DNA of 64,000 nucleotides, taken from NCBI GenBank assembly GCA_964428015.1, contig CAYRWR010000019.1, positions 503 to 64,502 of the forward strand. The letters are read 5' to 3'. The DNA comes from an uncultured Brevinematales bacterium (GTDB taxonomy: Bacteria; Spirochaetota; Brevinematia; Brevinematales; CAYRWR01). Below, piece by piece: positions 7,042 through 25,149 of the stretch (position 1 is its first letter; the number at the start of each line of letters is the position of its first letter). The translations under genes were made by a program, and so were the position numbers. A model generated the notes under the pieces. It saw only the letters and a list, made by a program, of their open reading frames with translations, did not search any database and was not told where the DNA came from.

Positions 7042-7216
7042 TTTTCCTCCCTTCTTTATGGTAGCATAGACCTTAAAAAATGCCAATTGTTTAGAATACA
7101 TTTAAGGCGGCTTGCATGAAATAGTGCAAGAATCAGCGGATTTATGAAAGGGCTTCCGGTGAAAAAAAGAATTATTTCATACTCAGTTATGCACATAAGT
7201 CACATAGGTCAATGAA

Positions 7217-7232
7217 TGGCACATTAATTGCA
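7217..7232 (+). promoter_or_regulatory. sigma-54 promoter P1 (TGGCACattaaTTGCA)
   Basis: Exact match to the RpoN -24/-12 consensus TGGCAC-N5-TTGCW, 209 nt upstream of ATG 7441. Confidence 0.75.
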
Positions 7233-7440
7233 TATTCTTGTGCAAGCGATTCCAGTCTCTTTCCAGGATGGAAGACGCGAAGATAAAAAATTATTTTTGA
7301 ATGAAGAATGGGTTATGGTGATGTACTTCTTTGGGGCCGTTCGGGCTCTCCCATTCCTTTCATTCATCCACTTTGCATCATTGGCTGATCTTACAATTTT
7401 TCAATCGAGGGTCGATTAAAAAATAGGAAAGGAGAGTGTT

Positions 7441-7938
7441 ATGAAAAAAGGAAGAGTGTTTTCTGTTCTGGTGGTTTTGATGGTTATCTGTGTCAGCAGC
7501 CTGTCTGCTCTGACCATCTTTGATGATGACTTTGATCAGTCATCCAGTACTGTCCCGGGTTGGAAGAGAAGTTCCACCACCTATATCACCCGTTATACCG
7601 GTACCTACAAAATCGGTACAGCAGCTATGCAAATCCGCAAAAACTACAATGCCGTCACCTATCTCAATGTAGCGCCTTTTAAGAGCATGACCCTGCAGTT
7701 CAAGATGGCCGCCTATTCCCTGGAAGCTGGTGAATACATCCGCTGTCAGTACAATATCAATGGTACCTGGGTCACCGCGGCTACTCTGGCAGATGGTGCC
7801 GACAATGGTACCTATAAAAGCTATTCCGTGACCATACCGACGGGAAATGTACTGCAGATCAAGTTTTACATGGTCGGCTCTGCTACTGACGACTATGGCT
7901 ATGTGGATAATGTGATCCTGACCGGCGTCCGCAAATAG
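7441..7938 (+). CDS. small secreted beta-sandwich/CBM-like protein, amylase-associated family, copy 1
   Basis: Signal peptide followed by a mature domain of about 140 aa, IFDDDFDQS...GWK...DDYGYVDNVILTG. It is paralogous to 11069-11560 and 19402-19899 and ends 11 nt before the GH13 gene. Confidence 0.8.
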   Translation: MKKGRVFSVLVVLMVICVSSLSALTIFDDDFDQSSSTVPGWKRSSTTYITRYTGTYKIGTAAMQIRKNYNAVTYLNVAPFKSMTLQFKMAAYSLEAGEYIRCQYNINGTWVTAATLADGADNGTYKSYSVTIPTGNVLQIKFYMVGSATDDYGYVDNVILTGVRK

Positions 7939-7949
7939 AGGGGGCCGGT

Positions 7950-10646
7950 ATGAAAAGAATAAGAGGTTTGTTGTATAGCCTGTTACTGCTTCTGGCTGCA
8001 GGTCAGCTGTTTGCGGTACGGACCGTGGTATTCATGTACAAGGTTACTGTAACAGGGCAGGATATCTTTATCAAAGGCGGACACGACGCCGGGCTGGTAC
8101 CGGGAGTCTATCCATCCATGAGTGAACCCATAACCTATAAAAACACCAAGAATACTACTACCGCTGCTATCAAAGCCAATGATGCCTCTCTGGACTGGGG
8201 TAGTGAGTCTGCCCTGGACTGGACTACTTCCAGCTGGAATCCCACCTGGGGCACCAAGCGCACCTACGCGGTAGACGGCTATGGTGAAGACCCTGAAAAT
8301 ACTTTGGGTGACCATTGGTGGAAGTTTGATGTGGATATGCTGGGCAATACCGGCGACTGGTTTGAATTCAAAGCCTTTATGCGACAGGGGACCAGCGAAT
8401 CCTGGGAAAATAATATCGCGCAGGCGGGTACCCCCTACAGCACTATCAACCACTGGGGCAAAAAGGGATATATCACTAAAGTCCGCTTTGGCGAAGCCTG
8501 GGTAGAGTATCAGACCCTGGGTACAGTGGCTAACCGGGCACCGGTGGCTAATTTTACGGCCAGCCCCTCCACAGCCAATCTCAACCAGGCTATTACTTTT
8601 GATGCCTCGTCATCCAGCGACCCGGATGGTGATGCCCTGCAGTACCAGTGGGATTGGGATAATAACGGCACCTATGATACCAGTTATTCTTCTACCAAGA
8701 CTGCATCTCACAGCTGGACCACAACCGGTACCAAGACCATTAAACTGCAAGTCAAGGATCCTGCAGGACTTACTTCCACTAAGACCCTCAGTGTGAATAT
8801 TATAAGTACCACAGCGTCCTATGACTTTCGTGAAGAAACTATCTACTTTGTGATGACTACCCGTTTTTACGACGGGGACCCCAACAATAATGTACACTGC
8901 TGGGATGATGCCCAGGCAGGCAACCCGGACAGTGACCCGGCCTGGAGAGGAGATTTTGAAGGCCTCATCCAGAAACTCGACTATATCAAAGCCCTGGGAT
9001 TCTCAGCTATCTGGATCACACCGGTAGTACAGAATGCCAGCGGGTATGACTACCATGGCTACCATGCCATAAACTTTAAAAAAGTTGATCCGCGGTATAA
9101 GACCACATCTGATGCCAGTGCCGAAGTTTCTTTCCAGAGACTGATCAATGCCGCACATGCCAAGGGTATCAAAATCATCCAGGATATTGTACTGAACCAT
9201 TCCGGGAACTTCGGGGAAGAAAACCTCTATCCCCTGTTTAAAAAAGATCCCACCAAGCCCGATACCGCGGCTAACATGATCCGCATCGATGGCGGTAAAC
9301 TCCCTGCCAATTACAGTACCCTGACACCCGGCCAGCAGTACAGTGCCCGTATCGATGCCATGAAGACAGATTCTATTGATACCGGGTTTATTTACCACCA
9401 TGAGAAGAGCCTGAGCTGGGAAAGCTATACCGTGGAGACGGGCCAGATCGCAGGTGACTGTGTGGACCTCAATACCGAGAATCCTACCGTGAAGACTTAT
9501 CTGGTGGATGCGTACAACAAGTATATCGATATGGGAGTGGATTCCTTCCGTATTGATACAGTCAAGCATATCAGCCGACTGACTTTTAACAAATACTATA
9601 TCCCCGCGTATATCAGCCGGGGAGGCAGTGATTTCTATATCTTTGGTGAAATAGCCAGCCGCTACCGCCAGGTGTGGAATAACGGGATACCGGCGATTTC
9701 CTGCCCCTTCTATACCTGGAAGGAAGAAAAATCCTACACCTGGGGGACCAGGGTGCAGAATGAAGCTGCTACCGCCCAGCACTGGAATGACAATCTGACA
9801 GTCAATAATGAACAATCCACCGATAATCATTATCTGTACGGCAATGATTATCATGTCCCCAACTGGAGTCAGCGCAGCGGTCTGGATGTCATAGACTTTC
9901 CCATGCACTGGAATTTCAACAATGCCTGGGATGCCTTCGGGATAGCAAAAAATGATGACCATTTTTATGCCGATGCTACCTTTAATGTGACTTATGTAGA
10001 CAGCCATGACTATGCTCCGGACGGCGCTCCGGAAAATCAGCGATTTGCCGGCAGCCAGTCCACCTGGGCTGAAAATCTGAGCCTCATGTTCACATTCAGA
10101 GGTATTCCTTGTCTCTACTATGGATCAGAGATTGAATTCCAGAAAGGTAAACCTATTGATGTGGGTCCCAATGCGCCTCTCTCTACTACCGGACGCGCCT
10201 ATTTTGGCGATAAGATCACCGGTACTGTGGTGGCCAGCGGCTTTGGTACCTACAGCTCCGCCAGCGGGAATGTCAAAACAACTCTGGACTATCCCCTGGC
10301 TCAGCATATCCGCAGGCTGAATATGTTCCGCAGAGCTATTCCTGCCCTGCAGAAAGGACAATATTCCGTGTCTGATATTTCCGGTTCCGGAATGGCCTAC
10401 AAACGCCGCTACACTATGGGCAGCGTGGATAGCTTTGCTCTCATAACGGTATCCGGTAGCGCTACCTTCTATAATATACCGAACGGAACCTACAAAGACG
10501 CGGTCACCGGTCAGGTTATTACCGTGAGTAATGGCAGTCTTACCGCTAATTGTTCCGGTAAGGGTAACGTTCGTATCTTTGTATTGGATCTGCCGGGAAA
10601 TCCAGCCCCGGGTAAGATTGGAAATACTACCTCTTATCTGTACTGA
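7950..10646 (+). CDS. secreted multidomain GH13 alpha-amylase (module X, PKD, GH13 catalytic domain)
   Basis: GH13 regions DIVLNHSG, GVDSFRIDTVKHI, FGEIAS and YVDSHDY. PKD-like segment FDASSSSDPDGDALQYQWDWDNNG. Signal peptide ends AAGQLFA. Confidence 0.92.
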   Translation: MKRIRGLLYSLLLLLAAGQLFAVRTVVFMYKVTVTGQDIFIKGGHDAGLVPGVYPSMSEPITYKNTKNTTTAAIKANDASLDWGSESALDWTTSSWNPTWGTKRTYAVDGYGEDPENTLGDHWWKFDVDMLGNTGDWFEFKAFMRQGTSESWENNIAQAGTPYSTINHWGKKGYITKVRFGEAWVEYQTLGTVANRAPVANFTASPSTANLNQAITFDASSSSDPDGDALQYQWDWDNNGTYDTSYSSTKTASHSWTTTGTKTIKLQVKDPAGLTSTKTLSVNIISTTASYDFREETIYFVMTTRFYDGDPNNNVHCWDDAQAGNPDSDPAWRGDFEGLIQKLDYIKALGFSAIWITPVVQNASGYDYHGYHAINFKKVDPRYKTTSDASAEVSFQRLINAAHAKGIKIIQDIVLNHSGNFGEENLYPLFKKDPTKPDTAANMIRIDGGKLPANYSTLTPGQQYSARIDAMKTDSIDTGFIYHHEKSLSWESYTVETGQIAGDCVDLNTENPTVKTYLVDAYNKYIDMGVDSFRIDTVKHISRLTFNKYYIPAYISRGGSDFYIFGEIASRYRQVWNNGIPAISCPFYTWKEEKSYTWGTRVQNEAATAQHWNDNLTVNNEQSTDNHYLYGNDYHVPNWSQRSGLDVIDFPMHWNFNNAWDAFGIAKNDDHFYADATFNVTYVDSHDYAPDGAPENQRFAGSQSTWAENLSLMFTFRGIPCLYYGSEIEFQKGKPIDVGPNAPLSTTGRAYFGDKITGTVVASGFGTYSSASGNVKTTLDYPLAQHIRRLNMFRRAIPALQKGQYSVSDISGSGMAYKRRYTMGSVDSFALITVSGSATFYNIPNGTYKDAVTGQVITVSNGSLTANCSGKGNVRIFVLDLPGNPAPGKIGNTTSYLY
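8016..8519 (+). other. module X (about 168 aa, unassigned conserved module), N-terminal copy in amylase 1
   Basis: VRTVVFMYKVTVTGQDIFIKGGHDAGLVP...HWWKFDVDMLGNTGDWFEFKAF...INHWGKKGYITKV. Boundaries approximate. Confidence 0.7.
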
Positions 10647-10669
10647 TTAAAACTGAACACCCACTATGC

Positions 10670-10706
10670 GGGGGTCCGGAGCTTAGGCTTCGGGCCCCTT
10701 TTTTTA
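10670..10706 (+). terminator. rho-independent terminator after amylase 1
   Basis: The hairpin GGGGTCCG-loop-CGGGCCCC is followed by T7. Confidence 0.75.
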
Positions 10707-10867
10707 TAATCTCCGCGGCTCAAAAAATAGCAGAAATGCACATATGCACAAGGCATGCGCGATGCATTTTGTATATGCACAGAATTGCAAGGAAAACCAG
10801 CACAACCACAGGATATAAAAATTATAATTGTATTTCTGATATAGATATAAAAAATACCCTGTGTGAT

Positions 10868-10883
10868 TGGCACGTTAATTGCA
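10868..10883 (+). promoter_or_regulatory. sigma-54 promoter P2 (TGGCACgttaaTTGCA)
   Basis: Exact RpoN -24/-12 consensus, 186 nt upstream of ATG 11069. Confidence 0.8.
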
Positions 10884-10890
10884 ATTATAC

Positions 10891-10904
10891 TGTAAGTGCT
10901 TACA
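10891..10904. promoter_or_regulatory. 14-bp palindrome TGTAAGTGCTTACA (LacI/cre-like operator candidate)
   Basis: It starts exactly 7 nt after the -12 TTGCA and spans the expected transcription start. Confidence 0.55.
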
Positions 10905-11068
10905 TCTTCCTTACAGAAGATTGTAATCTAATAAAAAAAGAAAAAAGAATGAAAAAGGAAACGGTTCCCGCAACCATCTCAATTCCTCCAGGGATGCCAG
11001 TACCTTTTTCATTCTTTAAATATAAAAAAAATCTGAAAAATATAAAAAATCAGAAAAAGGAGAGTGTT

Positions 11069-11560
11069 ATGAAAAAGGTAGGTTTAGTGTTGTTTTTAAT
11101 GGTTTTCGCAGGTCTTGGTTCTTTGTATTCCCTAAATATTTTTGATGATGATTTTGACCAGTCTGCCACCACCATGGCCGGATGGAAGCTTAGTTCCACC
11201 ACCTATATCACCAAATATACCGGAACTTACAAACAGGGTCTGGCTGCCATGCAGGTCAGAAAGAACTATAATGCAGTCACTTATATCAATGTATCACCCT
11301 TTAAGAACATGGTCTTAAAATTTAAAATGGCCGCTTATTCTCTGGAAGCCGGTGAATACATCCGCTGTCAGTACAATATTGCCGGAACCTGGGTGACCGC
11401 GGCTACTCTGGCTGACGGTGCAGACAATGGAACATTCAAGAGTTACTCTGTGAGTATTCCTACCGGGACCACACTGCAGATTCGTTTTATCATGAATGGA
11501 ACCGCAACTGATGATTATGGATATGTCGATGATGTAATTTTGACCGGTGACCGCAAATAA
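11069..11560 (+). CDS. small secreted beta-sandwich/CBM-like protein, amylase-associated family, copy 2
   Basis: The RBS context AGGAGAGTGTTATGAAAAA is identical to that of copy 1. Signal peptide LVLFLMVFAGLGSLYS. The mature part is about 90 percent identical to copy 3 by eye. Confidence 0.8.
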   Translation: MKKVGLVLFLMVFAGLGSLYSLNIFDDDFDQSATTMAGWKLSSTTYITKYTGTYKQGLAAMQVRKNYNAVTYINVSPFKNMVLKFKMAAYSLEAGEYIRCQYNIAGTWVTAATLADGADNGTFKSYSVSIPTGTTLQIRFIMNGTATDDYGYVDDVILTGDRK

Positions 11561-11579
11561 AAAAAGTAAGGAGTCTAAC

Positions 11580-14500
11580 ATGAAAAAATTCAGAAGTTGG
11601 ATATTAGCAGCTCTGCTCCTGCTCTCAGCAGGACAGATTTTTGCTGTCCGTACTGTCGTGTTTATGTACAAACAGACAGTCACCGGACAGGATATCTTTA
11701 TCAAAGGCGGACATGACGCGGGTCTGGTACCCAGTGTCTACCCCAGCATGAGTGAACCTATTACTTATTATAATACCCTCAATACTACCACCGCGGCTAT
11801 AAAAGCCAATGACGCATCTCTGGATTGGGGTAGTGAATCTGCCCTGGACTGGACCACATCCCTATGGCCCGCTTCCTGGGGTGCCAAGAAGACCTATGCC
11901 GTAGACGGTTATGGTGAAGACCCCGAAAACACCATGGGCGACCATTGGTGGAAATTTGACGTAGATATGCTGGGAAACACCGGTGACTGGTTTGAATTTA
12001 AAGCATTTATGAGACAGGGTACTGCTGAATCCTGGGAAAACAATATTGCCCAGGCCGGCACTCCCTATACAACCATCAACCACTGGGGTAAAAAAGGCTA
12101 TATCACCAAAGTAACCTTTGGTGCTAATACCGTCACCTATGTGGCCCTGACTCCTCCCGTCAATCAGCCCCCAGTAGCAGCTCTTACCGCTACCCCTGCT
12201 ACAGCTGATACCGGCGTGGCTATTTCCTTTAGTGCTGCCGGCTCTACCGATCCTGAAGGTACCGCTCTGCAGTACCAGTTTGACTGGGAAAATGACGGCA
12301 CCTATGATACAGCCTATAGTACAACAGCTACCGCCAGCCATGCTTATACCACCTCCGGTACCAAGACCGTCAAAGTCCAGGTCAAAGACGGCGGCGGCCT
12401 CACTGCTACCAAAACCGTAACTGTAACCATCACCGTGCCTACTGTAAAGACCCTGATCGTACACTACCGTAACTCATCAGCCTGGGCTACACCTAAGATG
12501 CACTGGGGATACAGCTACTATACAGCCGTATCTGACCTTTCCTCATCCGGTACTGACACTTTTGGTGCCAAGTTCCAACTGGAATGGACAGCTGCGGATA
12601 CCTATCTGACCACCTGTTTCAACAATGGTTCTACAGCCTGGGATGGTTCTGACCGCCGTATCAATAAACCGGCAACCTTCCCTTCTGAAGTATGGGTGTT
12701 GAACAATGATTCTACCGTTTACCTTAGCAATCCTATAGATGCTACTCCTCCTACTGTAGCCCTGTCCGCACCTGCCAACGGTGCCAGCCTGACCGGTACA
12801 GTAACCATCAGCGCTACCGCCAGTGACAACGTAGCCGTGACAAAAGTAGAGTTTTACTACGGCACTACCAAAATAGGTGAAGATGTTTCCTCTCCTTATT
12901 CCCTGTCCTGGAATACCGCTCTGGTTCCCAATGGCTCTTATGCCATTACAGCCAAAGCCTTTGACGCGGCTGGCAATAACACCACTTCTGCTTCACGTAC
13001 AGTGACCACCGCTAATGCTAATGTGCCTCCTGTCGCCAATGCTGGTTCTGATATTACCGTACAGGTAGGCGGAACAGCTCAGTTCAATGCTACTCAGTCT
13101 TACGATCCTAATGGCAGTATTGTCTCCTATCAGTGGTCCAATGGTCTGTCCGGTGCTACTCCCAGTAAAGTGTACAGCACCCTGGGTACTTATACAGTAA
13201 CCCTGACTGTGACAGACAATAACGGCGCTACCGCTACTGATACTGTAGTAGTCAATGTGGTCAACCAGATTGTCCGCACAGACCCTCGTGAAGATACCAT
13301 TTATTTTGTCATGACAACTCGTTTCTACGACGGTGACCCTGCCAATAACATTCACTGCTGGGATGACGCGCAAGCCGGTAATCCTGACAGCGACCCTGCC
13401 TGGAGAGGAGATTTTGAAGGCCTCATCCAGAAACTCGACTATATCAAAGCCCTGGGATTCTCAGCTATCTGGATCACACCTGTAGTGCAGAACGCCAGTG
13501 GATATGATTACCATGGTTATCATGCCTTGAACTTCTCCAAAGTGGACCCCCGCTACAAGACCACCGGGGATGCCAGTGCTGAAGTATCCTACCAGAGACT
13601 GATAAATGCCGCACATGCCAAGGGTATGAAGATTATCCAGGATATCGTGCTCAATCACTCCGGTAATTTCGGAGAAGAAAATCTCTATCCCTTGTTTAAG
13701 AAAGATCCGGCTATTTCTGACACCACAGCTGCTTCTCTGGTCCGCATCGACGGTGGAAAACTGCCTGCCAACTACGCTACCTTGACACCGGGCGAACAAT
13801 ACGGCGCGCGTATTTCCGCTATGAAAGAAGATACTATTGATACCACTTTCAAATATCACCATGAAAAAAGTATGTCCTGGGAAAGCTATTCTGTACAGAC
13901 CGGACAGATCGCGGGAGACTGTGTTGACCTCAATACAGAAAACCCTGCTGTCAAGAACTATCTGGTCAGCGCCTATAAGAAATACATCGATATGGGTGTA
14001 GATGGCTTCCGTCTGGATACAGTGAAGCATATTTCCCGTCTGGCCATGAATAAATGGTATGTACCTGAACTGCTGAACTATGCCGGCAATAACTTCTATT
14101 ACTTTGGAGAAGTGTGCAGCCGCTACCGCCAGATCTGGAATAACGGAATACCTGCAATTTCTGCACCCTTCTATACCTGGAAAGAAAATGTGTCCTATCC
14201 CTGGAGTGAATCAGACCGTACAGTCAATGAAGCATCTGTTTTCCAGAACTGGAATGACAACGACACTATGGATAATCTGCGCGAAACCGGCAATCACTGG
14301 CTGAATGGGAATGCCTACCATACTCCTGACTGGTCCTATCGCAGTGGTTTGGACGTCATCGACTTCCCCATGCACTGGAATTTCAACAATGCCTGGGATG
14401 CCTGGGGTGTAGCTTTAAGCGGCGACAAGTACTATAGCGATGCTACCTTTAATGTGACCTATGTAGACAGCCATGACTATGCTCCGGACGGAGCTCCTGA

Positions 14501-15110
14501 AAATCAGCGTTTCGCGGGCAGCCAGTCCACCTGGGCTGAAAACCTGAGTCTGATGTTTACCTTCCGCGGTGTGCCTACTATTTACTACGGATCAGAAATT
14601 GAATTTAAGAAAGGTGCTCCTATTGATGTAGGCCCCAATGCTCCTCTGTCCACTACCGGACGTGCTTACTTTGGTGACAATATCACCGGGACGATTAATG
14701 TCTCTGGATTTGGATACTACAGCGGTGCTACCGGAAACATCGCCAATACTCTGAATCACCCTCTGGCTAAACATATCATCCGTCTGAACCAGATACGCCG
14801 GGCTGTGCCTGCTCTGCAGAAGGGACAGTATTCGACCGCTGACATCTCCGGTGGAATGTCCTTCAAACGCAGATATACCAATGGCGCGGTAGACAGTTTT
14901 GCCCTGGTAACCGTGAGCGGTACTGCTACTTTCAACAACATTCCTAACGGTACCTATAAAGATTGTGTCACCGGACAGGTGATCAATGTGACCGGTGGCA
15001 GTCTGACTGCTACATGTAACGGAAAAGGCAACATCCGCGTGTTCGTACTGGATCTGCCTGGAAACCCTGCACCCGGAAAGATTGGTCAGGACGGGACCTA
15101 TATCTACTAA
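11580..15110 (+). CDS. secreted multidomain GH13 alpha-amylase (module X, PKD, CBM25/26-like, Ig-like, PKD, GH13)
   Basis: An AAGGAG RBS precedes ATG 11580. GH13 regions DIVLNHSG, GVDGFRLDTVKHI, FGEVCS and YVDSHDY. Starch-binding-like segment TLIVHYRNSSAW...FNNGSTAWDGSD. Two PKD-like segments. Confidence 0.92.
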   Translation: MKKFRSWILAALLLLSAGQIFAVRTVVFMYKQTVTGQDIFIKGGHDAGLVPSVYPSMSEPITYYNTLNTTTAAIKANDASLDWGSESALDWTTSLWPASWGAKKTYAVDGYGEDPENTMGDHWWKFDVDMLGNTGDWFEFKAFMRQGTAESWENNIAQAGTPYTTINHWGKKGYITKVTFGANTVTYVALTPPVNQPPVAALTATPATADTGVAISFSAAGSTDPEGTALQYQFDWENDGTYDTAYSTTATASHAYTTSGTKTVKVQVKDGGGLTATKTVTVTITVPTVKTLIVHYRNSSAWATPKMHWGYSYYTAVSDLSSSGTDTFGAKFQLEWTAADTYLTTCFNNGSTAWDGSDRRINKPATFPSEVWVLNNDSTVYLSNPIDATPPTVALSAPANGASLTGTVTISATASDNVAVTKVEFYYGTTKIGEDVSSPYSLSWNTALVPNGSYAITAKAFDAAGNNTTSASRTVTTANANVPPVANAGSDITVQVGGTAQFNATQSYDPNGSIVSYQWSNGLSGATPSKVYSTLGTYTVTLTVTDNNGATATDTVVVNVVNQIVRTDPREDTIYFVMTTRFYDGDPANNIHCWDDAQAGNPDSDPAWRGDFEGLIQKLDYIKALGFSAIWITPVVQNASGYDYHGYHALNFSKVDPRYKTTGDASAEVSYQRLINAAHAKGMKIIQDIVLNHSGNFGEENLYPLFKKDPAISDTTAASLVRIDGGKLPANYATLTPGEQYGARISAMKEDTIDTTFKYHHEKSMSWESYSVQTGQIAGDCVDLNTENPAVKNYLVSAYKKYIDMGVDGFRLDTVKHISRLAMNKWYVPELLNYAGNNFYYFGEVCSRYRQIWNNGIPAISAPFYTWKENVSYPWSESDRTVNEASVFQNWNDNDTMDNLRETGNHWLNGNAYHTPDWSYRSGLDVIDFPMHWNFNNAWDAWGVALSGDKYYSDATFNVTYVDSHDYAPDGAPENQRFAGSQSTWAENLSLMFTFRGVPTIYYGSEIEFKKGAPIDVGPNAPLSTTGRAYFGDNITGTINVSGFGYYSGATGNIANTLNHPLAKHIIRLNQIRRAVPALQKGQYSTADISGGMSFKRRYTNGAVDSFALVTVSGTATFNNIPNGTYKDCVTGQVINVTGGSLTATCNGKGNIRVFVLDLPGNPAPGKIGQDGTYIY
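11646..12149 (+). other. module X, N-terminal copy in amylase 2
   Basis: Same conserved sequence as 8016-8519. Boundaries approximate. Confidence 0.7.
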
Positions 15111-15127
15111 GTATTGCCATATGTATA

Positions 15128-15159
15128 AATGGGCTGCCGCAAAGGCAGCCCATTTTTTT
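15128..15159 (+). terminator. rho-independent terminator after amylase 2
   Basis: The hairpin AAATGGGCTGCC-loop-GGCAGCCCATTT is followed by a T-run. Confidence 0.85.
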
Positions 15160-15187
15160 ATTAAAGGGTATCTGTGACACATGGCAG

Positions 15188-15216
15188 TTGAAATTGTTTT
15201 TTAAAAGTAGTATAAT
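15188..15216 (+). promoter_or_regulatory. candidate sigma-70 promoter TTGAAA-17-TATAAT
   Basis: TTGAAA at 15188-15193 and TATAAT at 15211-15216 lie 27 nt upstream of ATG 15243. Confidence 0.55.
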
Positions 15217-15242
15217 ATTATTAATCTTTTAGGGGGTTCGGT

Positions 15243-16178
15243 ATGCGGTATATACTTATGATAGTCTTGAGTTTTATTATCTTTTCCTGTGCTCCCTCAG
15301 AAGAACCGTTGGACAAAGCCATAGATGAAGTGGTTATCATTACTCTGAATATGCACACCTACCAGGAAGCAAACCAGGATGCCAAATTTGATATTATTGC
15401 GCATGCCATCTGGTATTATCAAGCAGATTTTGTGGCCCTTCAGGAATGTGCTCAGGATATGAGCTCGACAATAGTTGATAATATTGGCGGTGCAAATATA
15501 AGAAATGACAATATGGCTTTGATTCTTCAAGAACGGCTAAAGACAGACTATCAACTGGATTACTACTATAATTGGGCGTGGGCACACTATGGATTTGGAT
15601 ATTATGAAGAAGGGGTAGCGGTGATGTCATTGTATCCTCTAACCGATTTAACTAATATCTGGATTTCTACTTCTCATTCTGCAAGTGATTTAGCATCCCG
15701 TAAAGCAGTTTCTGGAAGTTGTTTTGTGTCCCGGATAAATCAACATGTTCATTTTATCTCTGCTCATTTTCAACCCATGTCTTCAATTTCTGATACAGAA
15801 CCTAAAAACCAGGTAATAAGACTGAAAAATCTGGTAGAAAGTAATTATACTGCCGGAAACTTGGTTCTCGTCTGCGGGGATTATAACAATCAACCCACTG
15901 AGTCTGACCCTCGCTGGTCATCTACCTATCTTAACATGAGGACAAATAGCATTGTTTATACTGATACATTCCTGGTTGACAATCCCACAGCGAATAATTT
16001 GCCAGAAAATTCTATTTTTGATACGGTCAAAGGTACATATCCAGGAAGAATTGACTATATTTTTATGCGGACCAATAGCAACTATAGGGTCATCTCATCT
16101 GACATCATTTTTACCAGTGATAATCTAGGCCTGGTTTCAGATCATTTTGGAGTAGTCACACGGATTAAAAAACAATAA
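15243..16178 (+). CDS. endonuclease/exonuclease/phosphatase (EEP) family lipoprotein
   Basis: Lipobox IIFSC. EEP-type motifs ITLNMHTY, VALQEC, CGDYN and the C-terminal SDHFGV. Confidence 0.8.
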   Translation: MRYILMIVLSFIIFSCAPSEEPLDKAIDEVVIITLNMHTYQEANQDAKFDIIAHAIWYYQADFVALQECAQDMSSTIVDNIGGANIRNDNMALILQERLKTDYQLDYYYNWAWAHYGFGYYEEGVAVMSLYPLTDLTNIWISTSHSASDLASRKAVSGSCFVSRINQHVHFISAHFQPMSSISDTEPKNQVIRLKNLVESNYTAGNLVLVCGDYNNQPTESDPRWSSTYLNMRTNSIVYTDTFLVDNPTANNLPENSIFDTVKGTYPGRIDYIFMRTNSNYRVISSDIIFTSDNLGLVSDHFGVVTRIKKQ

Positions 16179-16194
16179 ACCAGTTCAAAAATTA

Positions 16195-16226
16195 AAATCC
16201 CCGGGTAATAAGACCCGGGGATTTTT
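16195..16226. terminator. bidirectional terminator between convergent genes
   Basis: The hairpin AAATCCCCGGG-loop-CCCGGGGATTT has A- and T-runs on the two sides. Confidence 0.85.
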
Positions 16227-16241
16227 CGGTACTTTCTTTTG

Positions 16242-17879
16242 TCAAAACATAAAGCTACGCAGAAGGTCTTCCATGGCTCCACTCACAGCCAGGTCAACTG
16301 CTTTTTGCCCCCTGTCATCAACACTAAAAATTTTATCCCGGAGTACTTTGATGTTTTTTCTGGCTTCAGCCACATTATCGGTCAGAGCGTACCAGTGGAG
16401 CAGGGTACCTCCATGATAGGCCAGATATAACTGCATCGCTGTCATTCCCTGAGGGCCGGGTAAATCAACCAGGTTTCGTTTTTTACCATAACGAAGGATT
16501 TCTTTATAGTTAGCTGTGATAGCCCCCCACAGCAAGTCGTATTTAGGATATTTCTTGATGAAGAGCTTGAAACTGGTTTCATGTGTATCACTGCGCAGCA
16601 TGATGTCTCTCACAATATTGGTGACTCCCCGGTCCAGGGCCAGGATTAGCGGAGTGTTTCCATCAGAGTCTGTGGTTTCCAGGTCAGCTCCTTTTTCCAG
16701 CAGCAAATTGACCCATTGGGCTCGGCTGTCTTTGACCGCAGTTAGAAGAAGGGAGTTCATCTCCGGTTTCGCAGTCTGTGCCAGATTGACTGTTTTGAGG
16801 TAACCGGGTTGATCCTGCTGATACAGGAGGGTGAGGAGTTCTGTCCACTCTCCGGGCCGAACCTTTGCCCCCAGAGATTGCAATACCTGAATCATATCTG
16901 AATCGTTGTTTTTAAAGGCAGTAAAGAGCAAGCTGTTTTCATTATCCAGGACAGCATTGACATCTCCGCCTTTAAAAAACAGGCTGGTAACCCAGGGTAT
17001 CCTTTCATCTTTCACAGCCCATAACAGCACCTGGTCTTTGAGGCGATTTTTCTGCTGGCTATTTAAGACAGTTTGTGCTGTTTCCAGGTCATCTTTCTGA
17101 TAGAGATCTTTGATGTAGGCCAGGTTCTGTTCATAGCTCATGCCAACCCCGTATTGTATCAGAAATTTTGCTATATCATTATGGCCCTTTTGTCTGGCCA
17201 GTTCTGCCAGATTGATCGATGTTATGGTTTCGCCTGGTTTAGTTTCCGGGACCACCTGCTGGGAAATATCAGCACCTTTGGCAAATAATAATTCCACCCA
17301 ACGGATACGGCCATCCCGTACCGCCCAGAGCAGTGCCTGATCGATTACCCGGGGGTATACTGCTTTTTCCAGTAACATACCTGCTAAAGCTAAATTATTC
17401 TTATTATAAGCGATCTTAATCAGGTCAAGACAGTCATTTTCTTCCAGGCGGATATCCTGAGTGATGAAGAGCTTCACCGCATCCAGTTGATTGTTGGAGT
17501 AGGCACATTGCAGTATCTGAGGATCAAGTTCCAGTCCGTTTTTGAACAACAAAGGGATACATTGACGTGTGTCATCCTTATCTCTGGCCAGAAGATAAAC
17601 CAAAGGTGATGAATTATTATATTTTATATTAAGATCAGCGCCCTTTTGGAGAAGGTAAGTCATGAGGTCTGGGTTAAATTTGATATAATTTGCCAGATAA
17701 AAACCCATAACAGGTTCTTTTTTTAAATCTACTGAACCAGCCTCTACCTGTCTTTTTACTTCACTGAAATCACTGTTTGATAATGCAGTCCAGAAACTGA
17801 CCGGCCAGATTGATGATGTCAATGTGAAGAAAAATAGAAAGGCCAGGAATCTTTTCACAGTATCCTTCCCCGGAAACAT
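16242..17879 (-). CDS. secreted ankyrin-repeat protein
   Basis: N-terminal signal FLAFLFFFTLTSSIW. Multiple ANK-like units, including KGADLETTDSDGNTPLILALDRG, KGADISQQ, GADLNIKYNNSSPL and GGDVNAVLDNENSLLF. Confidence 0.85.
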   Translation of the reverse strand: MFPGKDTVKRFLAFLFFFTLTSSIWPVSFWTALSNSDFSEVKRQVEAGSVDLKKEPVMGFYLANYIKFNPDLMTYLLQKGADLNIKYNNSSPLVYLLARDKDDTRQCIPLLFKNGLELDPQILQCAYSNNQLDAVKLFITQDIRLEENDCLDLIKIAYNKNNLALAGMLLEKAVYPRVIDQALLWAVRDGRIRWVELLFAKGADISQQVVPETKPGETITSINLAELARQKGHNDIAKFLIQYGVGMSYEQNLAYIKDLYQKDDLETAQTVLNSQQKNRLKDQVLLWAVKDERIPWVTSLFFKGGDVNAVLDNENSLLFTAFKNNDSDMIQVLQSLGAKVRPGEWTELLTLLYQQDQPGYLKTVNLAQTAKPEMNSLLLTAVKDSRAQWVNLLLEKGADLETTDSDGNTPLILALDRGVTNIVRDIMLRSDTHETSFKLFIKKYPKYDLLWGAITANYKEILRYGKKRNLVDLPGPQGMTAMQLYLAYHGGTLLHWYALTDNVAEARKNIKVLRDKIFSVDDRGQKAVDLAVSGAMEDLLRSFMF

Positions 17880-17966
17880 TTAAAATTCAAACAAAAATAT
17901 GTTTCCTATATAAACAGGATAAAAGGAAAATAGAAAAAATCCAGCGAAATATTAAATATATCTGAA

Positions 17967-18920
17967 TTATTGATAAATAATCAGGCCAGGTTGAGGTTTA
18001 AGTGCCAGAACATCAGCCGGAGACATGAGGGGAGAGTCATAATGCAGTCCTTTGGCCTGAACTCCGGGATAGTACCACAGTTTGAAGCCTTTATAGGGCA
18101 TATTGGTGGCCAGGGAGTTAAATGCGTGTGTGCCTAATTTCTGCCAGGGTGGGCCCCAGCCGGAAGTGTTGTGTACCAAAAGTACCGGATAATAGTCTGC
18201 CTGTATTTTTTCACGATGCAGGATCATTTGATATTTAAACTGGTGGAATACCAGTTGATGAATTCCACGGATGTGATTGGACAAAATATACGACTGCATG
18301 ATGCTCTGAATCTGGTTTATTTCTTCGCCTGTGATATGCCCGATTTCTTTCATGGGGCGGTCTGTACGCCATTCAGGGTCTACAGCCAGTTGGACATTAG
18401 GGTATTTCAGAAAAGGCAGCATTTTCCGGATTGCGTTTTCCGGGCCGTATTTTCCGATCTGGTGATCGAGGTAGAGCAGCATCTTATTGGAATAGGTATA
18501 ATTGATAAAGGACATCACAATATTAGAGTTCAGATAAGCCAGTTCTCCACCCGGTTGACAGGTAGCATAGATGAGATAGAATGCAGGCACCACTCCCTTA
18601 TCGCCATTTGTAGCATCATAGTTGCTGGCTTCAGTGAGCAGCATCTTACGTAGTTCATCTTTGGAGTAACGCCCCAGTATGCCCATATACCGGGAGTTAG
18701 GGTGGCCATAGTAAGCTATAATATGATTGCTGACAAACATATTGGTATTGTAGAAGAATTCATCCAGAGGATTCATAACAGGCGGGATATCGGATGACAC
18801 TCCTGTTAACAGCTTCCAACCTGCCTGTGACAGTTGGGACAGGCGGGGCAGAGAAAAAAAGACCGCAGTTAAGAACAGAGCAACAATCAGTAGTTTTATA
18901 CGAAGGTCATTTATTTTCAC
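17967..18920 (-). CDS. membrane-anchored hypothetical protein
   Basis: GTG start with an AAGGA RBS. One N-terminal TM helix (LLIVALFLTAVFF) and an extracytoplasmic domain of about 280 aa. No confident family. Confidence 0.55.
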   Translation of the reverse strand: MKINDLRIKLLIVALFLTAVFFSLPRLSQLSQAGWKLLTGVSSDIPPVMNPLDEFFYNTNMFVSNHIIAYYGHPNSRYMGILGRYSKDELRKMLLTEASNYDATNGDKGVVPAFYLIYATCQPGGELAYLNSNIVMSFINYTYSNKMLLYLDHQIGKYGPENAIRKMLPFLKYPNVQLAVDPEWRTDRPMKEIGHITGEEINQIQSIMQSYILSNHIRGIHQLVFHQFKYQMILHREKIQADYYPVLLVHNTSGWGPPWQKLGTHAFNSLATNMPYKGFKLWYYPGVQAKGLHYDSPLMSPADVLALKPQPGLIIYQ

Positions 18921-19209
18921 AGATTTATCCTTAATAAGAACTTAAAAAAGCACAGTATTTTAACATGAGCATCAGGAATAAGCAATTCCGGGGAATAGGG
19001 TGGTCGTCTTACCCTTTGATCAGTTTTTAATTATTTACCGACTTTGCTATCCCGGCTATTGTGGAAAATATTTTATGTAAGCGTTACTTTTTACAACTAA
19101 CAATGTGCATTTTATTTGGGCGTGAATTTGCACTGCAAATATGCCCAGTGCAGATTGTCTACAGTGTAATTTATTGTCTGACATAGAGCTGCACATTTAT
19201 CACTAAACT

Positions 19210-19225
19210 TGGCACGGGAATTGCA
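19210..19225 (+). promoter_or_regulatory. sigma-54 promoter P3 (TGGCACgggaaTTGCA)
   Basis: Exact RpoN -24/-12 consensus, 177 nt upstream of ATG 19402. Confidence 0.8.
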
Positions 19226-19232
19226 ATATAAA

Positions 19233-19246
19233 TGTAAGTGCTTACA
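19233..19246. promoter_or_regulatory. 14-bp palindrome TGTAAGTGCTTACA (operator candidate)
   Basis: Identical to the P2 copy and again exactly 7 nt after TTGCA. Confidence 0.55.
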
Positions 19247-19401
19247 GCTGGATTGCATAGCAAGTGCAATTTAGAAAAGCGGCGAGTGAAAAAAGAGGTT
19301 GGTTGTGTATCCGGTTGCCTTGCCCAGGCAAATCTTCATCTATCCAAAAACCTTTTTTTTCCGGTATCGTAATATTCAAAAAATTTACCGGGAGGTATGT
19401 C

Positions 19402-19899
19402 ATGTCCAAGTACAGAACTTTAGTGTTAAGTTTCTTGGTTGTTTTGTTAGCTACTGTCAGTTCTTTCGCTTTAACCATCTTTGATGACGATTTTGACCAG
19501 TCCGCTACTACTATGGCGGGATGGAAACTCAGTTCCACCACTTATATCACCAAATATACCGGAACCTACAAACAGGGTCTGGCAGCTATGCAGGTAAGAA
19601 AGAATTATAATGCTGTTACTTATTTAAACGTAGCTCCCTTTAAGAACATGGTGCTGAAGTTTAATATGGCTGCATATTCTCTGGAAGCCGGTGAATACAT
19701 CCGCTGCCAGTATAATATTGCTGGTACCTGGGTGACCGCAGCTACCCTGGCCGACGGCGCAGACACTGGTGCTTTTAAAAGTTATTCTGTTTCTATTCCT
19801 ACAGGAAATATCCTGCAGATACGTTTTATCATGAACGGTTCTGCTACAGATGATTATGGCTATGTAGACAGCGTGATCCTCACCGGTGACCGCAAATAA
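19402..19899 (+). CDS. small secreted beta-sandwich/CBM-like protein, amylase-associated family, copy 3
   Basis: A GGAGG RBS at 19391-19395 precedes the start. Signal peptide LVLSFLVVLLATVSSFA. Mature domain is paralogous to copies 1 and 2. Confidence 0.8.
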   Translation: MSKYRTLVLSFLVVLLATVSSFALTIFDDDFDQSATTMAGWKLSSTTYITKYTGTYKQGLAAMQVRKNYNAVTYLNVAPFKNMVLKFNMAAYSLEAGEYIRCQYNIAGTWVTAATLADGADTGAFKSYSVSIPTGNILQIRFIMNGSATDDYGYVDSVILTGDRK

Positions 19900-19925
19900 T
19901 ATAAAATCAATATAAGGAGAATAGG

Positions 19926-22748
19926 ATGAGAAAATTATTGTTAGCTCTGCTTCTTATGGCTTCAGCCTCCTCGGCTTTTGCTGTCAGGACAGTGGTGTTC
20001 ATGTACAAACAGACTGTGACCGGTCAGGACATCTTTATTAAGGGTGGACATGACGCGGGTCTGGTTCCCAGTGTCTATCCCAGTATGAGTGAACCTATCA
20101 CTTATTTTAATACCCTCAATACTACTACCGCGGCTATCAAAGCCAATGACGCATCTCTGGATTGGGGTAGTGAATCCGCCCTGGACTGGACCACCTCCCT
20201 GTGGCCCGCTGCCTGGGGTCCCAAGAAAACTTACGCCGTAGATGGATACGGTGAAGATCCCGAAAACACCATGGGCGACCACTGGTGGAAATTTGACGTG
20301 GATATGATCGGTAACTCCGGGGACTGGTTCGAATTTAAAGCCTTTATGAGACAAGGTACTGCTGAATCCTGGGAAAACAATATCGCCCAGGCCGGTACTC
20401 CTTATGCCACCATCAACCACTGGGGTAAAAAAGGCTATATCACCAAAGTGACATTTGGTGCCAATACGGTGACTTTTGTTCCTCTGAACACACCGGTCAA
20501 TCAGCCTCCCGTGGCTGCTCTGACTGCTTCTCCTGCCTCTGGTACCGTAGCTACTTCTTTTACCTTTAATGCTTCAGGTTCAACCGATCCTGAAGGTACC
20601 GCTCTGCAGTACCAGTTTGACTGGGAAAATGACGGTACCTATGATACAGCATATAGCACCACTGCTACTGCTACACACGTATTTACCACCATAGGCACCA
20701 AGACTGTAAAAGTTCAGGTCAAAGACGGCGGCGGACTTACCGCTACCAAGACTGTCAGCGTCACCATCAATAACACCGCTCCGACTGCTTCCTTTACTGT
20801 TACTCCCGCCAGCGGCACATTAGCTACTACTTTTACCGTTGACGCTTCCGGCTCTACCGACCTGGAAGACGGCACAGCTCTGCAGTACAGATGGGATTTT
20901 GAAAACGACGGCACCTTTGACACTGCTTATTCCACTACCAAGACTGCTACCAAGAAATATACCACTCTGGGTACCAAGACTATCAAACTGGAAGTCAAAG
21001 ATTCATCCGGTCTGTTGTCTACCATTACCAAGACTGTATCTGTAGCAGACGGCGGATTGAACCCTCACCCGGGATACTATTCCGGCAAGCCCGGTGCCCA
21101 CCTCTACTCCAACGGTACTGAATTCTCCATCTGGGCCCGTACCGCTACCTCTGTAAAAGTCCGCACCACCACCGGCGGTGTGACTACAGATACCACTCTG
21201 ACCAAGATCTCCGGCGGCGTCAATGACTGCATCTGGTGGGGCGTGGTTCCTACTGCGATTAAGGGTACTGAATACAAATTCGTGATCGACGGTGTTACCC
21301 TTACTGCTGACCCCTACAGCCAGTACAACCGTTATTCCGGCGGCAACTCTGTAGTAGTTGATCATTCAACCTTTAACTGGACTGATAGTTCCTGGGGTCG
21401 TCCCGGTTGGTCATACTATGCTATTTATGAACTGCATATCAAGGACCTGACCTCAGCTGATACCACCGTGACTGTAGCTAACCGTGGAAAATACCGCGGT
21501 GTGATCGAAAAAATGCCTTACCTCAAGAGCCTGGGTATCACCGCTATCGAACTGATGCCTGTGTCTGAATTCCCCGATGCCGGCTATGGCTGGGGTTATA
21601 ATACCTCTCTGTATTTCGCTCCTGAAAGCGGCTACGCCAATAATCCTTACAATGCTCAGGACGGTGTAGATCAGCTTAAAGAACTGATCAATGCTGCTCA
21701 TGCCAACGGTATCGCCGTAGTTCTGGACATGGTATTCAACCATACTGCTAACAATGACAACTGGCTGTGGGTGATCGACAGTCTGGCATACTTCAGCGGA
21801 TCCACTCCCTGGGGTAACCGCCTCAATACTGCTCATCCTATAGTACAAAGATTAGGTAAAGATAATCTGGAAATGTGGATGAAAGACTACCATGTAGACG
21901 GATTCCGTTTTGACGCTACCGGTAACGGCTGGATCGATTACAACTTTATCTATGCTGTAAAGAACCATTGTTCTGCCATTGACCCCAACGTCTATTTTGT
22001 TTACGAAAACCTGCCCAACAGTACCGGTCTGCGCACCTGGGGTGGACAGTGGGCTGACGGTTACCATGACTATGGTATCAACCTGATCTGTAACTGGAAC
22101 GGTGCTAACATGAGCGGAATGGCCAAGTACATCTATTACTCCAAAGATGACGGCTGGCCTGCCAGCCCCGTGGAAGCTCTGAACTATGTAGAGTCCCATG
22201 ACGAAGACACTCTGGGCAGACTGCTGGGTCTGGCTGGTTATAACGATGAAGGCAAGAGATGGAGAGGCCGTGCTGCAGCTGTGATGCTGGCTACTTCTCT
22301 GGGTGTGCCTATGTTGTGGATGGGTCAGGAATTCCTCCGTCCCCGCGAAGGTCAGGATATCTCTGAGATACCTCTGAACTGGACTTACCTCACTACCTTC
22401 TCCACAGTGAAGGATTACTATGCCGGAGTATTCACACTCAGAAAGAACAATCCTGCTCTGCGCCCTGCTAATGAAAGCGGATTCGCATGGCAGTATACTC
22501 CCTGGACTGGTGACGCCAATGTAATGGGTTATTCCATGACCACCACCAATCCTGCGGACAAGAAATTCGTGATCCTGCTGAATTTCAACTCTTCCGCCCG
22601 CACCGTCAGTCTGGGATTCCCAGCTAACGGTACCTGGACCAAAGTGGTCACAGAGACCGCAGTGAACGGCACATCTACTATTAGTGTGGCTAATAACCGC
22701 GCTACTGTCACCATCGAAGGTTCTTCTGGAATCATCTTCCAGCAGTAA
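19926..22748 (+). CDS. secreted GH13 debranching/pullulanase-type enzyme (module X, 2 PKD, CBM48-like, GH13)
   Basis: E-set/CBM48-like segment GAHLYSNGTEFSIWARTATSVKV. GH13 regions DMVFNHTA, VDGFRFDATG, VYENL and YVESHDE. Exact specificity cannot be assigned. Confidence 0.88.
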   Translation: MRKLLLALLLMASASSAFAVRTVVFMYKQTVTGQDIFIKGGHDAGLVPSVYPSMSEPITYFNTLNTTTAAIKANDASLDWGSESALDWTTSLWPAAWGPKKTYAVDGYGEDPENTMGDHWWKFDVDMIGNSGDWFEFKAFMRQGTAESWENNIAQAGTPYATINHWGKKGYITKVTFGANTVTFVPLNTPVNQPPVAALTASPASGTVATSFTFNASGSTDPEGTALQYQFDWENDGTYDTAYSTTATATHVFTTIGTKTVKVQVKDGGGLTATKTVSVTINNTAPTASFTVTPASGTLATTFTVDASGSTDLEDGTALQYRWDFENDGTFDTAYSTTKTATKKYTTLGTKTIKLEVKDSSGLLSTITKTVSVADGGLNPHPGYYSGKPGAHLYSNGTEFSIWARTATSVKVRTTTGGVTTDTTLTKISGGVNDCIWWGVVPTAIKGTEYKFVIDGVTLTADPYSQYNRYSGGNSVVVDHSTFNWTDSSWGRPGWSYYAIYELHIKDLTSADTTVTVANRGKYRGVIEKMPYLKSLGITAIELMPVSEFPDAGYGWGYNTSLYFAPESGYANNPYNAQDGVDQLKELINAAHANGIAVVLDMVFNHTANNDNWLWVIDSLAYFSGSTPWGNRLNTAHPIVQRLGKDNLEMWMKDYHVDGFRFDATGNGWIDYNFIYAVKNHCSAIDPNVYFVYENLPNSTGLRTWGGQWADGYHDYGINLICNWNGANMSGMAKYIYYSKDDGWPASPVEALNYVESHDEDTLGRLLGLAGYNDEGKRWRGRAAAVMLATSLGVPMLWMGQEFLRPREGQDISEIPLNWTYLTTFSTVKDYYAGVFTLRKNNPALRPANESGFAWQYTPWTGDANVMGYSMTTTNPADKKFVILLNFNSSARTVSLGFPANGTWTKVVTETAVNGTSTISVANNRATVTIEGSSGIIFQQ
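19983..20486 (+). other. module X, N-terminal copy in the GH13 debranching-type enzyme
   Basis: Same conserved sequence as the other copies. Boundaries approximate. Confidence 0.7.
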
Positions 22749-22766
22749 ACTGTTAAGCACTCATCA

Positions 22767-22798
22767 GGGGCTGTCGAAAGGCAGCCCCTTTTTTTTTT
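22767..22798 (+). terminator. rho-independent terminator
   Basis: The hairpin GGGGCTG-loop-CAGCCCC is followed by T10. Confidence 0.85.
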
Positions 22799-23098
22799 GT
22801 CCGGTATATTCCCGGTCATTGTACAGGGGAGGGGAGAGCGTGGATCACAGCTGTGCTTTCAGGCTGCTGGGTAGGGGTTGTGAACCTGCTGAGGAGATAT
22901 TTTTCTCCTTCGTTTTTTAGGAAATTGCCCTGTATTCTCTGATCTGCTTTCTTTAGACTGGTAAAGCTCCGCTAGAGCCGCACTGCTTTCCCGCATTTGA
23001 GGCGTCATGCATCCGTTTATGCACAAAATTCTACTGCCCCCTCTTTTTAGAATTTATAATTCATTGCTATTAAAAGAGTTATAATATAGCTTATCAAC

Positions 23099-23114
23099 TG
23101 GCATGCTAATTGCA
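23099..23114 (+). promoter_or_regulatory. sigma-54 promoter P4 (TGGCATgctaaTTGCA)
   Basis: One mismatch to TGGCAC-N5-TTGCA, with GG and GC retained. It lies 53 nt upstream of ATG 23167. Confidence 0.7.
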
Positions 23115-23121
23115 ATTATAC

Positions 23122-23135
23122 TGTAAGTGCTTTCA
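23122..23135. promoter_or_regulatory. 14-bp near-palindrome TGTAAGTGCTTTCA (operator candidate)
   Basis: It lies 7 nt after TTGCA. One arm mismatch relative to the P2 and P3 copies. Confidence 0.5.
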
Positions 23136-23166
23136 ATAAAGAAAACATTTTAGAAAGGAGAGGGTT

Positions 23167-24957: not shown

Positions 24958-24981
24958 TAGTCTATTATACTTAGATTCAAA

Positions 24982-25014
24982 AGAGGGTTACCTTAGGGTA
25001 ACCCTCTTTCTTTT
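24982..25014 (+). terminator. rho-independent terminator
   Basis: The hairpin AGAGGGTTAC-loop-GTAACCCTCT is followed by a T-rich tract. Confidence 0.75.
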
Positions 25015-25126
25015 GTAGGATTATAAATGCACCATGCACTTTGTACCTGCACAAAAACGCACATAGCTATAACCTCTTAAATTTTAACTTTATAAATAGT
25101 AAAGAGTTAACATTTTAGATTTTTTT

Positions 25127-25142
25127 TGGCACAGTATTTGCA
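25127..25142 (+). promoter_or_regulatory. sigma-54 promoter P5 (TGGCACagtatTTGCA)
   Basis: Exact RpoN consensus, 63 nt upstream of ATG 25205. Confidence 0.8.
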
Positions 25143-25149
25143 ATAAACA

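Follow-up and report, generated by a model that had tools for sequence, protein, structure and literature searches.

SusE and SusF are non-catalytic starch-binding accessory proteins of Bacteroides. Together with Sas6 of the Ruminococcus bromii amylosome, which is built from the starch-binding carbohydrate-binding modules (CBMs) CBM26 and CBM74 (bioRxiv 10.1101/2022.11.20.514607), they are secreted, non-catalytic, and encoded with amylases. A similar part is proposed here for a small protein encoded three times within a 64,000-nucleotide stretch of DNA from an uncultured Brevinematales bacterium (assembly GCA_964428015.1, contig CAYRWR010000019.1, positions 503–64,502 of the forward strand; this whole stretch is referred to as the window, and coordinates are counted from its first letter). 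The small protein fits the traits of this accessory class in being secreted, in lacking a catalytic domain, and in its conserved linkage to alpha-glucan enzymes, which holds at 24 of 25 loci and in one gene fusion. However, Sas6, SusE, and SusF consist of recognized starch-binding CBMs with Ig-like folds and are held by a dockerin or a lipid tether, whereas the small protein has an unrelated fold and no tether; neither Pfam nor the listed fold matches revealed similarity to recognized starch-binding CBMs (CBM20, 21, 25, 26, 34, 41, 48, and others). We propose, at about even confidence, that it acts in trans as a non-catalytic carbohydrate-binding accessory protein for alpha-glucan degradation within a sigma-54 starch regulon.

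In predicted fold and size (a beta-sandwich of ~140 amino acids, aa), the small protein is closer to the type B jelly-roll modules CBM4 (4bj0), CBM16 (2zex), CBM22 (4xuo, 1dyo), and the porphyran-binding 8xmz, and in its relatives the domain is likewise appended to glycoside hydrolases as an accessory module. Sequence identity to these modules is nevertheless 9–22%, with no match of the small protein to the CBM_4_9 profile, and they bind xylan, beta-glucans, mannan, and porphyran, whereas the small protein is encoded by a gene of its own, linked to alpha-glucan enzymes. The nearest profile families are NF038128 (choice-of-anchor J), DUF642, and Reelin subrepeat-B; we know of no function established for these three families themselves. 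NF038128 differs in that the window proteins score below its 30-bit cut-off (copies 1 and 2 reach 13.5 and 15.9 bits in alignments spanning the whole of NF038128, and copy 3 has no match) and lack the C-terminal sorting anchor typical of choice-of-anchor families.

Small secreted proteins and their predicted fold

The three small genes are as follows.

7441–7938, forward strand: small protein copy 1, 165 aa, with a signal peptide at about residues 1–23 and a predicted jelly-roll domain of 142 aa
11069–11560, forward strand: small protein copy 2, 163 aa, its start at 11069 backed by a GGAGAG ribosome-binding site and by homology
19402–19899, forward strand: small protein copy 3, 165 aa

Translation bore out the description of these genes in an earlier note on this DNA, which had reported three paralogous genes for proteins of 163–165 aa with signal peptides; the motifs quoted there are present in all three open reading frames (ORFs) at these coordinates. 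The mature protein comprises 142 aa (~15.7 kDa). Between mature copies 2 and 3 there are 10 differences in 142 positions (93.0% identity), much as in the earlier manual count of ~11 in ~139; copy 1 is 81.7% identical to copy 2 and 83.1% to copy 3. Pairwise ratios of nonsynonymous to synonymous substitution (dN/dS) of 0.036–0.086, at dS values of 1.26–1.87, indicate that the small genes are old duplicates under strong purifying selection and not chance ORFs.

Signal peptides were judged by eye and from an AlphaFold helix at residues 3–18. The N-termini have a basic start and then a hydrophobic run up to a junction of approximately A/S with L-T/N-I-F-D-D-D, and look like ordinary Sec signals rather than lipoprotein signals. 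A lipoprotein anchor was considered and set aside, as a signal-peptide Cys occurs in copy 1 only and is absent from copies 2 and 3 and from most homologs. No cell-surface or membrane anchor and no C-terminal sorting signal was found in the single-domain protein, which ends in TGxRK-COOH. This C-terminus is present in 21 of the 24 full-length, secreted, free-standing members of the family, as against none of the 64 domain copies embedded in multidomain proteins, where RK never follows the domain (0/64). The mature small proteins contain no histidines and hence no histidine brace, which rules out a hidden enzyme of the lytic polysaccharide monooxygenase type (AA10/AA13).

The earlier note could not place the protein in a named family, and database searches gave the same outcome. 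Pfam returned no match at E ≤ 1 for any of the three copies, and hence none to CBM_4_9 (PF02018); NCBIfam scores stayed below cut-off, and a confident match to an unrelated family did not appear. A word-indexed search of 5.8 billion proteins returned 21 relatives, none with a Pfam domain and all of 153–167 aa save for one over-long gene call of window copy 2 (203 aa). In a set with one genome per species, the family was present only in an uncultured Brevinematales metagenome-assembled genome (MAG) and three "Spirochaetes bacterium" MAGs. Searching PDB sequences with the family profile gave only chance matches to MST4 kinase (E 0.2–0.3), while the profile of the wider superfamily described below matched reelin 6a48 alone (E 9e-5). 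Literature searches on Brevinematales amylases, on sigma-54 and amylase in spirochaetes, and on choice-of-anchor J turned up nothing bearing on the small-protein family.

An AlphaFold model built from a 21-sequence alignment (predicted local distance difference test score, pLDDT, 86.9; predicted template modeling score 0.78) is all-beta with 10 strands. Querying the PDB with this model in Foldseek gave 273 matches at E ≤ 1e-3, led by CBM4-2, 8xmz, CBM16, MAM, reelin, and CBM22 at E 4e-7 to 1e-5, with query template modeling (TM) scores of 0.55–0.63 (8xmz, 0.63). No starch-binding domain was among the 50 structural matches listed. These matches place the model among the galactose-binding-like jelly rolls, the class that includes CBM4/16/22, MAM, and reelin subrepeats, in keeping with the jelly-roll CBM or lectin-like fold that the earlier note had guessed. 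This class usually binds structural calcium at the domain ends; the motifs DxF(D/E) (N-terminal) and DYGYxDDV (C-terminal) of the small protein sit at the ends of the domain. Its conserved aromatic residues include W41, Y48, Y52, Y74, Y104, W110, Y128, Y152, and Y154.

Partner enzymes and module X

Five secreted alpha-glucan enzymes are encoded in the window, three belonging to glycoside hydrolase family 13 (GH13) and preceded by a small gene, and two of plant type. All five contain a shared region of ~170 aa, here called module X.

7950–10646, forward strand: GH13 alpha-amylase 1 (GH13-1), 898 aa; signal peptide, module X, PKD, and GH13 (Pfam)
11580–15110, forward strand: GH13 alpha-amylase 2 (GH13-2); signal peptide, module X, PKD, Big_7, PKD, and GH13
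19926–22748, forward strand: GH13 pullulanase-type enzyme (GH13-3), 940 aa; signal peptide, module X, two PKD, CBM48, GH13, and Amy_C
23167–24957, forward strand: plant-type alpha-amylase A1, 596 aa; C-terminal module X at 24451–24954; no small-gene partner here
25205–26980, forward strand: plant-type alpha-amylase A2, 591 aa; C-terminal module X at 26474–26977
8016–8534, forward strand: module X of GH13-1, ~170 aa; AlphaFold pLDDT 89.6
11646–12164, forward strand: module X of GH13-2, from sequence comparison
19983–20501, forward strand: module X of GH13-3, from sequence comparison

Module X is N-terminal in the three GH13 enzymes and C-terminal in A1 and A2, with 78–81% identity between the two placements. 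It has no Pfam model and no PDB sequence match; Pfam CBM_20 was matched by only one of 13 module X members, at an E of 0.0015, and module X fails the Pfam threshold. The top ~45 Foldseek matches of its structural model were all CBM20-carrying proteins (STBD1, glucoamylases, cyclodextrin glucanotransferases, maltotetraose-forming amylase, and laforin), with modest scores (best E 2e-3, target-normalized TM-score 0.64, 10–16% identity). Judged from this model, module X is probably an expanded CBM20-like starch-binding domain; it differs from CBM20 in length (~170 aa as compared with ~100 aa) and occurs at either end of the enzyme. Module X is also present in an amylase fragment from a Myxococcaceae MAG (P0172).

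The earlier note described a triplicated two-gene cassette, a description that proved too broad. The repeated DNA runs from the small gene through the first 530–1300 nucleotides (nt) of the GH13 gene, at 73–83% identity; units 1 and 2 additionally share the catalytic part (75% DNA identity), and the back-end of unit 3 is of an unrelated pullulanase type. What was duplicated is the small gene together with the 5' stretch of the GH13 gene, which encodes module X and in some cases PKD; this unit has been joined to differing catalytic back-ends. The possibility that the small protein is itself a copy of a domain from the neighboring enzyme was rejected: a maximum-sensitivity hmmsearch against the GH13 enzymes and amylases gave noise only, and found no sequence relation to module X or to other enzyme modules. 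The two differ in isoelectric point as well, that of the small protein being neutral to basic (6.4–8.6) and that of module X acidic (4.9–5.6).

Linkage to alpha-glucan enzymes in other genomes

The survey of gene neighborhoods covered 22 loci outside the window, some of them probably from the same or closely related populations. In 21 of the 22, the immediate neighbor of the small gene is an alpha-glucan enzyme gene with the same orientation, an outcome that favors the reading of the earlier note; gene order and enzyme type vary, and three arrangements occur. With the window included, linkage to an alpha-glucan enzyme is found at the 24 of 25 loci cited at the outset. The small gene lies directly 5' of a gene of the module X-PKD-GH13 type at L005 (twice), L012, L017 (second pair), L018/19, and L021; 5' of a plant-type amylase gene at L017 and L029; and 5' of a GH13 catalytic region at L022. 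At least 12 loci show the opposite order, the small gene following directly 3' of an enzyme that ends in module X (L009/10, L013–15, L023–28, L030, L031); at L024, L025, and L027, a second GH13-type gene is found ~0.8 kb downstream on the same strand. The earlier observation that plant-type amylases lack a small partner therefore holds in the window but not elsewhere, where they have one upstream (L017, L029) or downstream, and the partner is not specifically a multidomain GH13 enzyme as had been supposed.

Module X is present in every partner enzyme that could be scored for it, and at most loci module X-coding DNA lies right beside the small gene. Strict adjacency to such DNA as a universal rule fails at L017, L022, and L029, where the small gene abuts the catalytic end instead. 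The window belongs to the Brevinematales lineage as well: its arginyl-tRNA synthetase is 78% identical to that encoded on a 98-kb Brevinematales contig with a syntenic amylase locus; its next matches, at 56–61%, are in Brevinematales and Brevinematia MAGs.

The recurrence of module X among the partners is one of several observations that would suit a different role, that of a protein-binding subunit seated on module X, PKD, or the catalytic domain of the partner, which would oligomerize, stabilize, or localize the enzyme without binding glycan. The fold class includes the protein-interaction domains MAM, reelin, and the Eph ligand-binding domain; the TGxRK-COOH tail is kept in free-standing members only; the small protein and module X differ in charge; and copies encoded in a set ratio to the enzymes would suit a subunit, a role that would account for the separate copy in each enzyme transcript. 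Nonetheless, some module X enzymes have no small-gene partner (A1 and A2 of the window; L005_592), the unanchored small protein could not localize anything alone, and the natural fusion described below keeps two copies of the domain in an enzyme with neither module X nor PKD. We regard such a subunit as rather unlikely, albeit as the foremost competitor to a carbohydrate-binding helper; the two models are not mutually exclusive.

A wider superfamily and a natural fusion

An exhaustive search of 1.84 billion representative sequences with the small-protein profile identified 937 proteins at E ≤ 1e-3, including 164 at E ≤ 1e-10. Small proteins aside, the best 150 of the 937 are mostly large secreted proteins in which the domain is internal or terminal, often in 2–4 copies. 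Its partner domains include PKD/Ig repeats, archaeal pilin N-termini, type IX secretion system (T9SS) tails, SLH, and beta-helix regions, and its enzyme partners include polysaccharide lyases, GH5, GH18, GH123, S8 subtilase, and M14 peptidase. Superfamily segments weakly match DUF642 (PF04862; 8 of 35), NF038128 (6 of 35), Reelin subrepeat-B (PF21471; 4 of 35), and CBM_4_9 (3 of 35; best E 4.5e-4), and neither Pfam nor NCBIfam holds a curated model that covers the superfamily. The earlier suggestion of an undescribed component thus stands insofar as no curated model exists, but the small protein is not an orphan: it is a free-standing branch of a widespread, unmodeled accessory module. Across the superfamily, the domain behaves as a promiscuous extracellular accessory module with no fixed substrate.

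This breadth raises the alternative that the small protein is an adhesin or binder of some other glycan, such as the host envelope or extracellular polymeric substances, the plant cell wall around starch, or the sludge floc, which would keep the enzyme and the cell near particles. Superfamily members occur on pilins, SLH proteins, T9SS cargo, proteases, and lyases; the weak profile links to DUF642, CBM_4_9, and choice-of-anchor J include none that is starch-specific; and the nearest folds bind xylan, beta-glucan, mannan, and porphyran. Set against this is the genomic context of the subfamily itself, which is linked exclusively to alpha-glucan enzymes (24/25 loci and one fusion), and we consider binding to another glycan improbable, slightly more so than the subunit role above.

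The one fusion, P0022, is the best match outside the small-protein family (E 1.4e-72) and is encoded in the Brevinematales MAG that also has the syntenic amylase locus. It is a secreted enzyme of 919 aa encoded at L016 8001–10760, on contig CAZIAD010000011.1 of that MAG, with the order signal peptide, two tandem copies of the domain (at about residues 22–163 and 175–325, with Ser/Thr/Gly linkers), CBM48, GH13, and Alpha-amylase_C; module X and PKD are absent. A GGAGG ribosome-binding site precedes the ORF, and a sigma-54-like TGGCAT-N5-TTGCA element (TGGCATAGTTATTGCA) lies 122 nt 5' of it. The fusion is represented by one contig and is judged genuine on the continuity of the ORF and the divergence of its copies; as the tandem copies are just 78% identical in DNA, it is not an artefact of repeat assembly. 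Its architecture argues that the domain may work physically beside an alpha-glucan enzyme, much like an appended CBM.

The earlier note had allowed for inhibition or chaperoning as well as for substrate capture, anchoring, or partnering. A small, secreted beta-protein encoded directly 5' of an enzyme, and apparently co-transcribed with it, would indeed recall some enzyme-foldase and enzyme-inhibitor pairs, and the small protein might on that analogy be an amylase inhibitor or a chaperone for secretion or folding of the downstream enzyme. Such a role is made unlikely by the tandem fusion, a permanent attachment to a GH13 enzyme that is hard to reconcile with either function. The variable gene order, with the small gene 3' of the enzyme in at least 12 loci, also speaks against it, as does the lack of similarity to known inhibitor or foldase families in Pfam, NCBIfam, PDB sequence, and Foldseek searches. 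We give inhibition or chaperoning very little credence; of the accessory roles first entertained, it is that of a trans-acting carbohydrate-binding helper that we favor.

Putative operon structure and promoters

In the window, the stop codons of the small genes precede the ATG of the downstream GH13 genes by 11, 19, and 26 nt (units 1, 2, and 3), as previously noted. Because each GH13 gene comes with a separate ribosome-binding site, ATG, and signal peptide, the small ORF is not a split or frameshifted GH13 N-terminus. GH13-2 truly starts not with the GTG at 11547 but with the ATG at 11580, which follows an AAGGAG ribosome-binding site. Five promoter elements of sigma-54 type (−24/−12) precede these units and the plant-type amylase genes.

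7217–7232, forward strand: promoter element of unit 1, TGGCACATTAATTGCA; exact consensus, aligning with the four other amylase promoters
10868–10883, forward strand: promoter element of unit 2; exact consensus match, supported by promoter alignment
19210–19225, forward strand: promoter element of unit 3; exact consensus match, supported by promoter alignment
23099–23114, forward strand: promoter of plant-type amylase A1; one mismatch, supported by promoter alignment, same regulon
25127–25142, forward strand: promoter of plant-type amylase A2; exact match, supported by promoter alignment

Matches were scored against the consensus TGGCAC-N5-TTGCW (GG at −24, GC at −12), and the exact matches in the window read TGGCAC-N5-TTGCA. 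The motif occurs eight times in the 64-kb window as compared with 2.2 expected occurrences. The elements of units 1, 2, and 3 are placed 208, 185, and 176 nt 5' of the small-gene ATGs, and an element of this type is also kept 5' of small genes in L005, L006–8, L017, and L018/19. The five amylase promoters can be aligned with one another (7050–7300, 10700–10950, 19045–19295, 22930–23180, and 24960–25210). No gene for a sigma-54 activator was found within the window.

The intrinsic terminators of the three units are as follows.

10670–10699, forward strand: unit 1, a 13-bp stem followed by a T-run
15127–15155, forward strand: unit 2, a strong hairpin
22766–22789, forward strand: unit 3, a strong hairpin

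A strong terminator hairpin also stands behind plant-type amylase A1 (24980–25009), and none separates the small gene from its GH13 gene in any of the three units. The earlier idea of a shared sigma-54 promoter is upheld by this layout of promoters and terminators, which supports co-transcription of each small gene and its GH13 gene as a putative bicistronic, sigma-54-dependent operon. A look for expression evidence found the window sequence only in DNA runs of sludge metagenomes.

Several minor features of these upstream regions were also observed. The five aligned promoters share a CATGCA-TTTGT-N-TGCACAAAATTGCA block ~100 nt 5' of the −24 element, a candidate site for an enhancer-binding protein. 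A palindrome, TGTAAGTGCTTACA, stands right behind the −12 element in four of the five and is a candidate operator or 5' hairpin. The leaders of the small genes are long (176–208 nt; 7233–7440, 10884–11068, and 19226–19401), and those of the plant-type amylases span ~50–60 nt; searching the long leaders for regulatory RNA gave no credible Rfam match.

Proposed role of the small protein

Under the role that we favor, the small protein would be exported through Sec as a single-domain protein, and the sigma-54-dependent transcript that encodes it would also encode an amylase or pullulanase bearing a CBM20-like domain. After export, the small protein would attach to alpha-glucan chains or to the surface of starch beside the enzyme, and perhaps dock on the enzyme itself. 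The second binding specificity or the added avidity that it brings may then improve substrate capture.

Several points weigh against this proposal. To our knowledge, the known starch-binding CBM families are all Ig-like beta-sandwiches, and alpha-glucan binding by a jelly-roll fold would be without precedent. Across the superfamily, the module is found on non-enzymes and on enzymes acting on many different substrates, and thus shows no inherent starch specificity. Domains that bind proteins (MAM, reelin, and the ephrin-receptor ligand-binding domain) belong to the same fold class. Partner enzymes already have a probable starch-binding domain in module X, so that there is little obvious need for another, and a helper that works independently of the enzyme does not obviously need three enzyme-linked copies. 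Because the host is diderm, a Sec signal alone leads only to the periplasm, and contact with granular starch is not assured. Lastly, one family member, P0008 (L001–4; at L001, 8789–9283), is encoded apart from any amylase. P0008 is flanked by a flavodoxin-like gene and by a gene for a GerE-type regulator, the latter divergently transcribed.

A bolder form of the proposal can be put forward as doubtful at present: that the small protein founds an alpha-glucan-binding CBM family with a jelly-roll fold, and that its Arg-Lys tail docks on the acidic module X to form a two-component, mix-and-match starch-binding unit. We know of no link between the galactose-binding-like jelly-roll class and starch. 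New CBM-like families turn up regularly.

If the small protein does bind alpha-glucans, it would represent a new starch-binding family in a fold class unused by known starch-binding domains, and spirochaetes of anaerobic digesters would be supplying a binding module in trans, with one copy per enzyme transcript. A superfamily of extracellular modules without a curated model (937 representative clusters) would likewise gain a name and a testable role. The small protein is, in any case, an uncharacterized, lineage-restricted, free-standing branch of this module with unusually tight linkage to amylases; together with module X and the sigma-54 promoters, it outlines a putative, hitherto undescribed regulon for starch degradation in Brevinematales, a lineage for which functional data are scarce. 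With the fusion, the variable yet faithful linkage, the CBM20-like module, and the sigma-54 regulon, the system is well delimited and open to direct testing, and small stand-alone binding modules are useful as affinity tags and as additives for raw-starch hydrolysis.

Other features of the window

The window also contains two very large ORFs on the forward strand, at 39946–45540 (1864 aa) and 50599–53235 (878 aa), the latter with no Pfam match at E ≤ 1e-4. Between units 2 and 3, and with no evident link to starch use, are genes for an endonuclease/exonuclease/phosphatase-family protein (15243–16178, forward strand) and for an ankyrin-repeat protein of 545 aa (16242–17879, reverse strand), the latter being unusual for bacteria.

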